Of a stretch of DNA of 64,000 bases, positions 24,523-33,670 are shown piece by piece. The first letter of the stretch is position 1; every line of letters begins with the position of its first letter. The notes beneath the pieces were generated by a model that was given only the letters and a program-made list of their open reading frames with translations, searched no databases and had not been told where the DNA came from. The translations under genes were made by a program, and so were the position numbers. The DNA is from a virus (lineage: Duplodnaviria; Caudoviricetes). The DNA lies in the IMG/VR virus record IMGVR_UViG_3300012157_000001, positions 64,001-128,000 of that record, one strand, 5' to 3'.

Positions 24523-24799
24523 GCCTACTGAACCTGGACTTTCTCGTTGGTTGCCTGTGCGGCTCTTTCGTCATCCCCGCACTAGTCCGCCGGATGTCGA
24601 CGGGGCGATGGGACGGCTGGATCGAAGCGCGCCGGCAGAAACCAGCGCTCGGCTCTACTGTGCTCGCGTGCCTTCCGTGGACGAGCGTTCACGCGGTGAC
24701 GTACAACGGGCCCGACGGCGGCGGAGAAATTCCCGAGGATGCACCAGCTCTGCTGGCGTCCAATGCCACAGCGCCCTCACTTCCGGGTACGCTAGGAGC

Positions 24800-25801
24800 A
24801 TGTCCAGCGCCCTAATCACCGTCACGAGCCGTGCGCTCGAACCGGCCAAGGCAGCGGAGCTGCGCGCGACCGCCGAAGGGGCTACCGAATTCCTGAAAGC
24901 CGCTCGTGCCCCGAGCACACATGCCTCCTACGCATCGGACTGGCGGCAGTTCAGCGAATGGATCGAGGGTCACGGACTCGACCCGATTCCGGCGGATCCG
25001 CGCATGGTTGCCCTCTGGATCAGCCACATGGCGCGCGCTCTGAAGCGCAAGCCGTCGTCGATCCGCCGAATGCTCACGGCGATCGGAACCATCCACCGTC
25101 GCGCAGGCCATCCGAACCCGTGCGAGCAGGAAGTTGTCCGCGAAGAGATGCGCGGGATCGCCAACACGCTCGGCGTGCGACCGAAGCGGGCGGCGCCGCT
25201 CTTGATTCCACACCTGGAAGCCATCATCGCCGGCATGGGCGAGGGGCTCCGGGCCGCCCGTGATCGCGCGATCGTCCTCGTCGGCTGGAGCGGCGCTATG
25301 CGTCGGAGCGAGATCGCGGCTCTACGTGCCGAGGATCTGACGTTCCTCGACAAGGGCGTCAGCGTGCTGATTCGCCGGAGTAAGACTGACCAGGAAGGTA
25401 AGGGAGAGAACGTAGCCCTCTTCTACGCGACGCGGACGGCGCTCTGTCCCGTGCATGCGCTCCAGGAATGGATGCGCGCCGCGGCGATTACGGCGGGGCC
25501 GCTCTTTCTCCGCCTGAGCAGCCACCGCGACGCGCAGATCATCGCCGATCCGATGTCGCCAGAAATGGTTCGGTACATCGTACAGACGTGGACCGACCGC
25601 GCAGGTGTGCAGCCTGAGCAGATCGGTGCGGTGTTTTCGGCGCACTCGCTTCGCGCCGGCTTCATCACCGAGGCCGCTCGCAACGGCAAGGCCGAGTGGA
25701 CGATCGCGAAGCAGTCGCGTCATAAGAGCGCCGACGTGCTCCGGACGTACATCCGAACCGCCGATGCGTTCGAAGGGAACGCGGGAGAAGGACTGCTGTG
25801 A
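24800..25801 (+). CDS. tyrosine recombinase/integrase (Cre-like)
   Basis: catalytic R (AMRRSE), K (RSKTDQ), HSLR, H (SRHKS), Y (YIR); AGGAG RBS. Confidence 0.93.
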   Translation: MSSALITVTSRALEPAKAAELRATAEGATEFLKAARAPSTHASYASDWRQFSEWIEGHGLDPIPADPRMVALWISHMARALKRKPSSIRRMLTAIGTIHRRAGHPNPCEQEVVREEMRGIANTLGVRPKRAAPLLIPHLEAIIAGMGEGLRAARDRAIVLVGWSGAMRRSEIAALRAEDLTFLDKGVSVLIRRSKTDQEGKGENVALFYATRTALCPVHALQEWMRAAAITAGPLFLRLSSHRDAQIIADPMSPEMVRYIVQTWTDRAGVQPEQIGAVFSAHSLRAGFITEAARNGKAEWTIAKQSRHKSADVLRTYIRTADAFEGNAGEGLL

Positions 25802-27233: not shown

Positions 27234-29432
27234 ATGGTTGCGATGTCCGACGTCGTCGCTGGCACCGAGCGCTGGCACGTGGCGCTCGCCGACTGCCTGT
27301 TCGCGCTCTCTTGCCTACCTGACGCTTCGGTCGATTCGATCGTGACGGACCCGCCGTACGGTCTAGGCACGCGAGACCCGACCGCCGAAGAGCTCGTCGC
27401 GTACCTGACATGTGGCGAGCTAGGGATTCAGCCCAAGGGCCGTCAGCACTGCGCGAACACAGTCCTTCGGGGCGCCTGTATCACGAATCCTAATGATCCT
27501 GAAGCCTCTACTTCGCAATTGACGGTCACGTTTCGTGTCCGCTTCTCTTCTGCTTTTGCGATGGCTGTCCGGAGTGTCCAGCTCCAGCACGAGGCGCTTC
27601 CCCACGAGAAAGTCGACAACATAGGCGGCGAACCCCAACTCGATGACATGCTGGTACCGGCACCGCACTCCGCGCCTACGCAGCGCACTCCGAACAGCCA
27701 GTTCCGTCTTGGGGAATTCCAAGGTTCTGCCGGATGCGTAGGTGTGTGCCGCTGTTTTACGCATCTTAGCGAGTCCCGCTTTGCTGTATCGGTACGGCTT
27801 GACGACGACTCGCTTCGAGAGCCCGAGGCTTCTGCCAGCGTAGTGACACCGACGAGAACAAAACTGCGAGCCGTGCTTACTCTTGATCTGGGAACGACAT
27901 CGGGAGAACTTTGTCTTGCAGACGGCACAGACCAGACGGACAGCGGTCTCCTGCTTGCGCCCACGAAGAATATAGGAACACCGCCTGCTGCAAGTGGTGT
28001 GTCTCCCTCGCTTCAACAGCCACTTCACAGCTCGGTAGGCCCGTCCACAGACGGGGCACGCACGATCCACGTGGCTGTTCCCGTCGCTCTTCTTCGGCGC
28101 TTCCACCAATCCAGCGTCTCACACAAAGATTTCATGGGCAAGGACTGGAGAATCCCACCTATTTCCGTCTGGCGAGAGCTTTACCGCGTCTTGAAGCCCG
28201 GGGGCCATGTGCTTTCGTTCGGCGGCACCCGTACCTTTGACTTGATCGCGCTCGGCCTCCGCGCGGCGGGCTTCCAGTTCCGCGACACGATCGGCGCCGA
28301 GGGCGTGCTGCGGTGGGTGCAGTCGCAGGGCATGCCGAAAGGGATCGACGTCGCGAAGGCGATCGACGCGATGGTCGGAGTCGCGCCTACGGTCATCGGC
28401 ACTCGCGTGCTCACGGGATCGGCGGCCATGTCGACAGCCGAGAAGGGGGGCACGTACGCGGCCGCAACGCGCAGCGCCGGCAGGAAAAAGGAGGTTGCCG
28501 TCACAGCTCCGACGTCGCCCGAAGCGCAAGCGTGGGACGGATGGAACGTCGCGCTGAAGCCGACGTGGGAACCCATCCTGATCTTTCGCAAACCGCTCGA
28601 CGGCACCGTGGCCGAGAACGTACTGCGCCACGGAACCGGGGGGCTCAATGTCGACGGATGCCGCGTGCGAGTCGATCCCGATGCAGACGCGGATCAGCTT
28701 CGACCGGTGAGCCGCGGCCAACGCACCGACGATGACGGCTGGGGCATGAATGCAACCGGCAGCACCACTGGGCAGGTGGTGAGCCCGGAGGGCCGCTGGC
28801 CACCGAACCAGCTGCTCTGCCACCTGCCGAGCTGTCTGCCTACCAAGACGATCGACGTCTGGGATTGTGCACCAGGCTGTCCCGTAGCCGCGCTCGACGC
28901 GCAGAGCGGAGAATGCCCCGCCGGTATCGCGGTCCTACGCAACGGCGGCGGGGGCAAAATATTCGGAAGCGAAAACACGAGAGGTCCGTCGCCGGACGGC
29001 GGATACACGGACACTGGCACGGCATCGCGGTTCTTTCCGCAGTTCGGCTGGGATCCAGTGCTCGACGGTCCTGGCTTTCTGTACGTTGCGAAGGCGTCGG
29101 GCGCCGAACGCGACGCCGGCCTCGACGGCGAGATCAACACGCACGTCTCTGTGAAACCCGTCACGCTCATGCAGTGGCTCATCCGCCTCGTGACACCGCC
29201 CGGGGGACTCGTGCTCGATCCGTATTCGGGTAGCGGTACTACCGGAGTTGCCGCGATGCGCGAGGCCGGAGGCTTCCGTTTCCTAGGGATCGACGTCGAC
29301 CCGGACTACGTGCCGATCGCCATAGCACGGATCCGTCACGTCTCCGGTGGGCACTACCGGACGCTCGCCGAGATCGCCGCCGCGGCCGCCGCGGGTTCCG
29401 CCGGTCCACAGAAGCAGCTCGGCCTCTTCTGA
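27234..29432 (+). CDS. N4/N6 DNA methyltransferase (beta class) with a ~235-codon in-frame insertion
   Basis: DSIVTDPPY, DFMGKDW, RVLKPGG, HVSVKP, VLDPYSGSGTT. Confidence 0.92.
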   Translation: MVAMSDVVAGTERWHVALADCLFALSCLPDASVDSIVTDPPYGLGTRDPTAEELVAYLTCGELGIQPKGRQHCANTVLRGACITNPNDPEASTSQLTVTFRVRFSSAFAMAVRSVQLQHEALPHEKVDNIGGEPQLDDMLVPAPHSAPTQRTPNSQFRLGEFQGSAGCVGVCRCFTHLSESRFAVSVRLDDDSLREPEASASVVTPTRTKLRAVLTLDLGTTSGELCLADGTDQTDSGLLLAPTKNIGTPPAASGVSPSLQQPLHSSVGPSTDGARTIHVAVPVALLRRFHQSSVSHKDFMGKDWRIPPISVWRELYRVLKPGGHVLSFGGTRTFDLIALGLRAAGFQFRDTIGAEGVLRWVQSQGMPKGIDVAKAIDAMVGVAPTVIGTRVLTGSAAMSTAEKGGTYAAATRSAGRKKEVAVTAPTSPEAQAWDGWNVALKPTWEPILIFRKPLDGTVAENVLRHGTGGLNVDGCRVRVDPDADADQLRPVSRGQRTDDDGWGMNATGSTTGQVVSPEGRWPPNQLLCHLPSCLPTKTIDVWDCAPGCPVAALDAQSGECPAGIAVLRNGGGGKIFGSENTRGPSPDGGYTDTGTASRFFPQFGWDPVLDGPGFLYVAKASGAERDAGLDGEINTHVSVKPVTLMQWLIRLVTPPGGLVLDPYSGSGTTGVAAMREAGGFRFLGIDVDPDYVPIAIARIRHVSGGHYRTLAEIAAAAAAGSAGPQKQLGLF
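27420..28109 (-). CDS. DUF559/Vsr-like (EDxHD-type) endonuclease with N-terminal zinc fingers, nested antisense in the methyltransferase
   Basis: CPVC..CSRRC, CAVC..CSRRC; TELAVRSAL..G..YQ..YVVDF..LVLELD..SH..DTKRDRQLRSRGFRIIRI. Confidence 0.85.
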   Translation of the reverse strand: MVEAPKKSDGNSHVDRACPVCGRAYRAVKWLLKRGRHTTCSRRCSYILRGRKQETAVRLVCAVCKTKFSRCRSQIKSKHGSQFCSRRCHYAGRSLGLSKRVVVKPYRYSKAGLAKMRKTAAHTYASGRTLEFPKTELAVRSALRRRGVRCRYQHVIELGFAAYVVDFLVGKRLVLELDTPDSHRKSRREADTKRDRQLRSRGFRIIRIRDTGAPKDCVRAVLTALGLNP

Positions 29433-31846: not shown

Positions 31847-32164
31847 CGGCTGCACGACGACGATGGACTCAGACGCCGAGCGACTCCGACGCATTCGGTG
31901 GTGCCGCTGCGGGCAGCCGTGGATCCCGGCGGCTGGCCTCTACGGCACGACCGAGGAGACGGAGTGCTGCGCCTGCGTACTCCGTCGCATGCTTGCCGAA
32001 GAACGAAAGGCGTATGGCGCCAAGGCAGCACTTCGGGCGGCCACGACGGTCGCATTCGCCGCAGCCGTGGAGGAGTGCGAGGCGTACTCGAAGGGCACGA
32101 CATCAGTGGAGGCCAAGGCGGTCGCGATGAATCTCGCGGTGCGCATCACACGGAGAGCAAAACA

Positions 32165-32731
32165 ATGAGCGGGCAAATCATCCAGTACCGAGACGACCTT
32201 GTCAGGTGTTTCGTGGACACCGAGTTCTATGAAGACGGCAAAACGATCGACCTGATCAGTCTCGGAGCGGTGCGCTCCGACGGCAGGGAGTTCTACGCCG
32301 TGAGCTCCGAGGCGAAACTCGACCGTGTGTCGGAGTGGGTCCGGGACAACGTCTTGCCGCACCTGCCTCCCCAGGGCGACCCGGCCTGGCAAACGCGCTC
32401 CGAGATCGCTCTCGGATTCTCGGCATTCATGATCGGCCTCGACCGCGAGAAGATCGGCGAAACCTGGGAGCAGGTCGGCGAAGTCTGGGGCTACTACTCC
32501 GACTACGACTGGGTCGGCATCTGCCAGCTATACGGCACGATGATGGGGCTGCCGACACACTTCCCGATGTACTGCCTCGACCTGAAGCAGCTCTCGTGGA
32601 TGCTCGGTAACCCGAAGCACCCAGAGCAAGAGACGGGCGAGCACCACGCGCTGCATGACGCGCGCTGGAACCGCGACCTGTTCGCGTTTCTACGCACTGT
32701 GCCGAGCGGCGTGCGGCGCTACGGCCGATAG
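32165..32731 (+). CDS. DEDD 3'-5' exoribonuclease (Rv2179c/DUF5051-like)
   Basis: FVDTEF...LISLG...WVRDNVLPHL...YSDYDW...HHALHDA. Confidence 0.88.
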   Translation: MSGQIIQYRDDLVRCFVDTEFYEDGKTIDLISLGAVRSDGREFYAVSSEAKLDRVSEWVRDNVLPHLPPQGDPAWQTRSEIALGFSAFMIGLDREKIGETWEQVGEVWGYYSDYDWVGICQLYGTMMGLPTHFPMYCLDLKQLSWMLGNPKHPEQETGEHHALHDARWNRDLFAFLRTVPSGVRRYGR

Positions 32732-32743
32732 GAAAGGACACCG

Positions 32744-33670
32744 ATGTACGACGCAAGAGTCTTGGCGCATTCCGTGAGCCCCACCGGTTACGAGCTCGTC
32801 ACGCTCGCAGCCACGTTCCCTCGAATCATCCTCGCCGAGGCCAACACGCATCGCGTGCTGTCACGGAACAGCGCTTCGTCGCGCGCAATCCCCGTGGAGC
32901 GGCGTATCAAGCAGATCCGGTCCTCTTGCTTCATTCCCGAGGCGTTCGGCAAGAACAAGAGCGGCATGCGGGCTGACGAGCCGCTCGGGGAGGACGAGGA
33001 CAGCCTTGCACGGACCATTTGGGCGAAGGCCGCGGAGGACGCCGCCATCCACGCGGATGCGCTTGCGGCGATCGGAGTCCACAAGCAGCACGCGAACCGT
33101 CTCATCGAGACGTTCGCCTGGCACACTATTATCGTCACCGCGACCGAGTGGGCGAACTGGGACGCGCTCCGCGTGAGCAAGAACGCTCAGCCCGAGATGC
33201 ACAAGATCGCCGGCATGATGCGCGAGGTACGGCTCGCCAGCGTTGGGGTGGCTGTAGACTACGACCAGTGGCACCTGCCGCTCGTGCGTGGCACTCCATC
33301 TTTCGGCAGGCCGATACAGGAGATCTTTGCCGAGGAGCACGATCTTCGGACCCGCGGCATCGATCCGGTGAAGGTCTGTGTCGGGCGTTGCGCCGCCGTG
33401 AGCTACGAGCGCCACACCGTAGACAGCACCCCGGAAAAAGACGCCGCGCGCTACGATGGGCTCCGTTCGAATGGGCACATGTCGCCGTTCGAGCACGCCT
33501 GCCGGCCCATGGCTCCTACGGAGCTCGACCTGTTCGCGCAACCTGAGTGCGTCTGGGACGGATCGCGGTTCCTGCGCACCGGTCGGATTCGACACTTCCT
33601 CGGGAACGTCGAAGGGTGGATTCAGCAGAGGAAGATGATCCCTGGAGAGGACGTATACACCGGAGAGTAG
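32744..33670 (+). CDS. thyX: flavin-dependent thymidylate synthase
   Basis: FPRIILAEANTHRVLSRNSASSRAIP, HKQHANR, AQPE, HMSPFEH. Confidence 0.9.
   Translation: MYDARVLAHSVSPTGYELVTLAATFPRIILAEANTHRVLSRNSASSRAIPVERRIKQIRSSCFIPEAFGKNKSGMRADEPLGEDEDSLARTIWAKAAEDAAIHADALAAIGVHKQHANRLIETFAWHTIIVTATEWANWDALRVSKNAQPEMHKIAGMMREVRLASVGVAVDYDQWHLPLVRGTPSFGRPIQEIFAEEHDLRTRGIDPVKVCVGRCAAVSYERHTVDSTPEKDAARYDGLRSNGHMSPFEHACRPMAPTELDLFAQPECVWDGSRFLRTGRIRHFLGNVEGWIQQRKMIPGEDVYTGE

Follow-up and report, generated by a model that had tools for sequence, protein, structure and literature searches.

How can a nuclease gene lie wholly inside another gene and leave it readable? Homing nucleases are usually assumed to need an intron or an intein to spare the gene that hosts them. 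At the locus considered here, a nuclease gene on the opposite strand fills an insertion within a DNA methyltransferase gene (hereafter the methylase), and the methylase frame runs through the insertion without a stop. The locus lies in a stretch of 64,000 nucleotides (called the window below) from a virus record of 179 kb that is complete and has direct terminal repeats; a search of the virus genome for a terminase gave no match. I consider it likely that the insertion is a mobile homing-endonuclease cassette that is not spliced out but translated through as part of the host methylase. The features on which this reading is based are collected in Table 1.

Table 1. Features of the interrupted methylase locus, in window coordinates.
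Feature	Position	Strand	Basis or remark
Methylase gene, beta-class N6/N4 DNA methyltransferase	27234..29432	+	PF01555, phrog_67
Catalytic motif IV (DPPY) codons	27348..27359	+	Sequence
Left flank, same behaviour as right flank	about 27381-27422	+	Identity drop beside insert
Nuclease gene, antisense, in register	27420..28109	-	229-codon ORF, DUF559 PF04480 E 1.8e-8
Insert, 705 nt = 235 stop-free host-frame codons	27423..28127	+	Alignment to empty alleles
Vsr-like / DUF559 catalytic domain, E136, D166, E176, H183, D191	27435..27704	-	Pfam; PDB matches
Second Cys4 zinc-finger-like motif (aa 61-88)	27846..27929	-	Cys invariant in alignment
First Cys4 zinc-finger-like motif (CxxC...CSxxC, aa 18-44)	27978..28058	-	Cys invariant in alignment
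Putative extended -10 box (TG-n-GACGCT)	28113..28118	-	17 nt from -35; 6 nt before GTG
Right flank, probably carried in with insert (co-conversion)	28128..28193	+	Identity drop beside insert
Putative -35 box TTGCCC	28136..28141	-	Reverse complement of host Met-Gly-Lys codons; outside insert proper
SAM-binding motif I (DPYSGSG), intact	29217..29237	+	Sequence

The methylase ORF has 732 codons with the insert and about 501 without it. Its match to PF01555 has an E-value of 8e-23, its modelled core is good and, by structure comparison, matches the beta-class enzymes CcrM, TTHA0409 and M.RsrI, and the arrangement is that of the beta class: DPPY ahead of motif I (FxGxG) in a methyltransferase fold. 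Both motifs are preserved in the window and in the majority of the complete inserted hosts (a narrow regular-expression count, whose numbers are inexact). Genes for an integrase, an RNase H-like exonuclease and a thymidylate synthase are found nearby in the window (24551-25801, 31898-32731 and 32744-33670, respectively). The inserted host ORFs of four relatives (L078, L087, L114 and L128) stop short of motif I; these are split genes, further insertions or frameshifts.

The initial annotation placed an in-frame insert of about 700 nt between two motifs of the methylase, and alignment with empty alleles now fixes its edges. The empty alleles have DTGG (4 codons, 12 nt) where the insert sits, giving a net gain of 693 nt, and the spacing from DPPY to xFMG is 260 aa in the window methylase as against 27-37 aa in about 100 empty homologues. 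The insert is, as had been remarked, richer in A/T than its flanks (58.7% vs 66.4% GC). The net 693 nt are missing at this position from a soil contig whose downstream identity is about 91%. The insert is no assembly artefact, since a second, independent sediment sample contains part of it (27475-27781) with one difference. Every inserted relative has the insert in the variable loop that separates DPPY from xFMG, with the nuclease gene antisense to the methylase and in register with it. The left junction differs among them, lying immediately behind DPPY in some and up to 27 codons downstream in others, and the right junction is constant, just before xFMG. Further insertions occur in some of these methylases: P0016 (1113 aa) carries, besides the insert, a PF13403 (Hint_2) domain that is probably an intein elsewhere in the same methylase, and an extra insertion seems to be present in L005 as well (1041-codon host frame).

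The TAG stop of the nuclease is the complement of the methylase codon CTA at 27420-27422, with the codons of the two genes in register, just as first described. The nuclease ORF itself is present as annotated, but its length of 229 aa should probably be revised: the listed start is a TTG at 28109, and the spacing from the putative promoter makes the GTG at 28106 (228 aa) the likelier one. The two CxxC...CSxxC motifs and the DUF559/Vsr domain noted earlier are borne out by cysteines invariant across the family and by the Pfam match. A profile of the nuclease finds the PDB entries 3R3P (I-Bth0305I; E 1e-4) and 3HRL (E 7e-6), in keeping with the statement in the initial annotation that Vsr-like EDxHD nucleases act as phage homing endonucleases. 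Inserted copies keep the catalytic residues expected of a real EDxHD enzyme (E136 in 68/68, D166 in 68/68, H183 in 62/68); the final Asp (D191) aligns poorly across subgroups. Like other EDxHD homing enzymes, the nuclease combines a Vsr-like domain bearing E, D, H and D with a separate N-terminal region and has spread horizontally to empty alleles. The Cys4 region (aa 18-88) would, from its sequence, be a DNA-binding arm separate from the nuclease domain. Substitutions affecting the nuclease residue alone occur at 0.16-0.27 of the doubly silent rate; judged by this, the nuclease is intact and under purifying selection.

Relatives of the nuclease were recovered by alignment-based scans, a scan of viral contigs with the single protein as query having found none; tblastn against 50,697 GenBank phage records likewise gave no match. 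The element is widespread in uncultured phages, with at least 68 distinct inserted members. Its N-terminal arm is shared with Vsr and HNH genes that stand free, often placed head-to-head with an intact methylase gene, and the HNH and Vsr domains interchange on this one arm. The nuclease tree has 108 columns, weak for the number of origins and for the direction between free and inserted states. Three further loci deserve description. A free-standing nuclease (L068:2497-3295) of 34% GC has 0 antisense stops vs 15 expected; it joins the inserted copy L110 in the weak nuclease tree and is possibly derived from an inserted copy. At L002:2341-3274, a free-standing HNH gene with the same zinc-finger arm lies head-to-head with a methylase whose frame meets a stop within 6 extra nt (TAACTA) immediately after the DPP codons. 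L033:55-1310 consists of an N-terminal methylase fragment ending in DPPAG, then an antisense nuclease, then the start of a second, complete methylase, and this order may be intermediate between a free-standing nuclease and an inserted one.

The central question is whether the methylase frame is open by chance or by selection. In order to avoid selecting for open frames, relatives were sought with the nuclease rather than the methylase as query, and the loci were classed by the position of the methylase pieces, ignoring frame, and dereplicated at 90% identity. The strict inserted class (n=56) has the N-part of the methylase on one side and the C-part on the other, and 12 more loci added by eye bring the number to 68. 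The claim that the host frame stays open in related insertions held up in this nuclease-first search: in-register antisense stops are absent from 56/56 strict loci, at GC contents down to 38%, and the other two antisense frames almost always contain several stops, up to 36. Expressed as codons, those that would place a stop in the host frame never occur in the 68 inserted nucleases (CTA 0/975, TCA 0/659, TTA 0/158) and are common in 37 free-standing relatives (CTA 48/431, TCA 108/492, TTA 78/188; 234 in all). From their own codon use, about 350 host-frame stops would be expected over the 68 inserted loci, and 0 are observed; since inserted relatives share ancestry, the codon counts are not fully independent and the pooled count is not a probability, although most inserted pairs differ at more than one third of residues. 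For the window gene alone, about 5 host-frame stops are expected, and the probability of finding none is 0.003. In two loci with a broken host methylase (L023 and L058) stops are present and the nuclease is intact.

The purging of stops from the methylase frame argues that ribosomes very probably read through the insert, and such read-through argues in turn against RNA splicing, ribosome hopping and re-initiation. Internal re-initiation at the FMG methionine was considered and rejected: no selection against stops would follow from it. The closest related phage (GCA_009772335.1; L163:4256-5071) is empty at the DPPY-FMG site and has a different antisense DUF559 gene (271 aa), out of register, near the C-terminus of its methylase. 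That methylase is left in two pieces of 450 and 106 aa and its host frame contains stops, so breakage of the frame by such a gene can be survived.

The translation of the insert in the methylase frame had been called non-protein-like, a description that may be too simple. Substitutions that are silent for the nuclease and replace the host residue occur at 0.53-0.82 of the doubly silent rate, as compared with 1.1-1.4 in controls (free-standing nucleases and methylase flanks). At columns silent for the nuclease, the choice of host residue is narrower in 30/35, and the host frame is richer in Asp/Glu (12.5%) than the antisense shadows of free genes (6.7%) and has fewer Trp/Tyr, the free set being lower in GC. 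These measures show the host-frame peptide to be under selection on its amino acids. Even so, the conservation it appears to have is largely, to judge from the alignments, the shadow of the nuclease, and the antisense shadows of free genes show the same motifs. AlphaFold gave the insert a pLDDT below 50 with 14 inserted rows, and a beta-rich model with an insert pLDDT of 70.6 and a pTM of 0.66 with 65 rows; covariation in the nuclease leaks into the host-frame alignment from which these models were made, and the fold is possibly an artefact. Fold searches with the host-frame model (PDB, PDB-wide and Atlas) gave no match, which is not evidence of a new fold, and what the model did resemble included no Hint chain (best Z 3.2, the model being uncertain). 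On these predictions it is rather doubtful that the segment truly folds.

Independently of reading frames, the distribution of the insert bears on its mobility. Inserts about 99% identical reside in methylases that differ at 12-30% of residues. In pairs of loci such as L039/L040, L017/L019 and L069/L105, the inserts are 97-99% identical and the 110 methylase residues downstream differ by 23-30%, to which misalignment around indels may contribute. Identity within the pairs climbs at the DPPY codons, or at most about 70 nt before them, and remains high beyond FMG as far as RVLKP, the pattern that a co-conversion tract would leave. On a host tree built with the loop excluded, the 14 inserted alleles require 12 changes, of which strong branches force at least 10, and the total is no fewer than when the labels are shuffled (mean 13.4). 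In this tree the window allele has the empty allele P0003 as its sister. The identity of the window allele to the closest empty alleles is 47-67% beside the insert vs mostly 70-93% further off, and the alignment to the soil relative ends at 27380 and restarts at 28194. Judging from these comparisons, the cassette passes from one methylase allele to another, divergent one and takes flanking host codons with it, and vertical inheritance with losses is rejected by the near-identical inserts in divergent methylases and by the host tree. The initial annotation had presumed a mobile insert, and the scatter over the host tree and the empty state of the closest relatives of the window agree with this.

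An antisense gene needs its own means of expression, and a candidate promoter became apparent by alignment, a generic promoter scan having made no call at the window nuclease. On the nuclease strand, the conserved host Met-Gly-Lys codons read TTGCCC or similar, a hexamer resembling a -35 box. At a spacer of 17, TANNNT is found in 29/68 inserted copies, many with the full TGnTATAAT, as against at most 7 copies at any other spacer from 10 to 29 and 0/6 empty alleles at spacer 17. About half of the inserted copies have their -10 located elsewhere, and the window's own -10 is weak (2/6 consensus match). The host residues over the -10 region vary (Ile-Ile, Arg-Val, Ser-Ile) and are encoded by rare codons, a sign of constraint at the level of DNA. 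Downstream of the -10 there follows a Shine-Dalgarno sequence, or else a start codon 6-7 nt on; in the window, the GTG at 28106 is only 6 nt past the putative -10, and its start is likely leaderless. A -35 borrowed from host codons would explain the fixed right junction. The sequencing runs listed as containing the element include no RNA run, and one RNA sequencing run that was inspected held only unrelated methylase fragments. A bolder version of the reading, that the nuclease's antisense shadow is a real folded domain in the methylase and that adjacent conserved host codons complete the promoter, is on balance unlikely; if true, some 230 codons would encode two structured, selected proteins on opposite strands.

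Several other accounts compete with that of a cassette read through by its host. The caveat voiced at the outset was chance: the nuclease would be disruptive or a passenger, opposite a frame that is open as antisense frames in GC-rich DNA often are, and five GC-rich free-standing relatives (L024, L041, L056, L111 and L116) do lack an antisense stop. Against the low probability calculated for the window gene and the open frame in 68/68 inserted relatives, even at 38-39% GC, the caveat fails, and I give chance practically no weight. Avoidance of stops would by itself also fit a frame kept open only to hold ribosomes on the transcript and so avoid polarity downstream, with the long methylase inactive, and motif I is missing from the same ORF in some inserted hosts; but the roughly two-fold depletion of host-frame amino-acid changes, the avoidance of Trp/Tyr and the intact catalytic and SAM-binding motifs of the window and most complete hosts make this account unlikely. 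The tight linkage of nuclease and methylase, seen also in free-standing relatives that often lie beside a methylase gene, might suggest a domesticated unit inherited whole, for example a compact pair of the restriction-modification or addiction type, with the methylase guarding against its own nuclease. I find this very unlikely, as the insert travels independently of the methylase, which is empty in about 100 homologues, the zinc-finger arm joined to a Vsr domain is the architecture of a homing endonuclease, and HNH and Vsr have been swapped on the same arm.

The remaining alternatives would remove the insert from the product. An unrecognised protein-splicing or self-cleaving domain in the host frame, acting after translation, would agree with an open frame under amino-acid selection, which an intein would also show; true inteins with antisense Vsr-like nucleases exist, and the host-frame model is beta-rich. 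Yet Pfam intein and Hint families find no match in 65 host-frame peptides, and the junction residues (L/S and xFMG), which vary between clades, lack Cys/Ser1, a terminal Asn/Gln and a +1 Cys/Ser/Thr, in an insert that the nuclease fills almost end to end; protein splicing thus has a very slim chance. Removal or skipping at the RNA level, by a group I/II intron or by ribosome hopping, draws on the precedent of phage group I introns that carry EDxHD nucleases (PMC3239194), but a spliced or skipped region would not lose its stops. A search of Rfam found no intron at E<5 (two chance matches both lie outside the insert), and the non-coding part of the window insert amounts to about 20 nt at one end and none at the other, leaving no room for a ribozyme because the nuclease ORF fills the insert. 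This account is extremely improbable. The absence of intron and intein features is what the initial annotation had supposed in proposing an insert that does not splice, and its larger idea, a homing element that spares its host by keeping the frame open in a tolerant loop, gains support from the open frames, the mobility and the conserved catalytic residues.

As a homing cassette, the element would work as follows. The nuclease would be transcribed from an antisense sigma-70-type promoter, with its -35 supplied by the host Met-Gly-Lys codons, and would cut empty methylase alleles of co-infecting phages near the DPPY/FMG codons; repair off the occupied allele would then copy the cassette into the cut one. 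The methylase mRNA would be translated straight through to give a 732-aa protein with a tolerated extra segment of 235 aa, and one stretch of DNA would thereby encode two peptides under selection, strong on the nuclease and weak on the host segment. An addition of this size in the loop after the catalytic motif could be detrimental to the enzyme. Nor need all hosts be active, given that the ORFs of several inserted ones terminate ahead of motif I. For sparing the host gene, this family would seem to have a third route, namely translation through the opposite strand of the nuclease gene. The natural series, with its free-standing controls, may show how a fully overlapping antisense frame gains amino-acid constraint, perhaps even a fold, and so concerns how new protein domains are born. 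Annotation is affected as well: gene callers give either the long methylase or a nuclease plus half a methylase (P0001), never both.

The closest known system is ShiLan, which adds about 200 codons, in frame and without a stop, to DNA methylases of actinophages (PMC11855218, PMC9957025) and has an HNH gene in frame 3 of the methylase's own strand and no splicing domain (PMC11855218). The initial annotation spoke of an antisense HNH in an actinophage methylase insertion, which that paper corrects: the ShiLan HNH is on the same strand, in frame 3. ShiLan and the present element share a nuclease in another frame, zinc fingers, the lack of an intron or intein and a patchy distribution, and a leaderless start, likely for the window nuclease, was proposed for ShiLan also. 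The present element works in the same manner, with a stop-free methylase insertion lacking a splicing domain, but by ShiLan's own description it falls outside that family, being antisense in register, of the Vsr/EDxHD type and in need of its own promoter, where ShiLan has a same-strand HNH in frame 3; the ShiLan paper (PMC11855218) makes no mention of reverse-strand cases. In scale, at least 68 distinct members far exceed the single published ShiLan family.

Full inteins with antisense Vsr-like or LAGLIDADG homing endonucleases have been described in polymerase, minor capsid, terminase and thymidylate synthase genes (bioRxiv 10.1101/2025.01.02.630785), a second precedent, absent from the initial annotation. 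They too place a Vsr-like nuclease opposite an open host frame, but within intein splicing domains, which are undetectable in the present element with its methylase host. The prototype of EDxHD homing, I-Bth0305I, resides in a group I intron and cuts beside its own insertion site (PMC3239194). It and the enzymes of fractured genes resemble the present nuclease in having a C-terminal Vsr-like E-D-H-D domain and an N-terminal DNA-binding arm, and in interrupting a phage host gene near a conserved motif; fractured genes are rescued by split inteins, whereas rescue here appears to be by read-through, and the arm consists of two Cys4 fingers. The element thus combines the antisense Vsr of the intein cases with the absence of a splicing domain seen in ShiLan. 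The general trick of hiding a nuclease in an open host frame was first described in 2023-2025, and the antisense, intein-free methylase version appears to be new: searches of the literature outside subscription journals yielded no account of a methylase that carries an antisense nuclease and no intein. The two kinds of element can occur side by side, for in L004:4055-4675 a second insertion in the same methylase, ShiLan-like with a same-strand, out-of-frame HNH and an open host frame, lies beside the antisense element.
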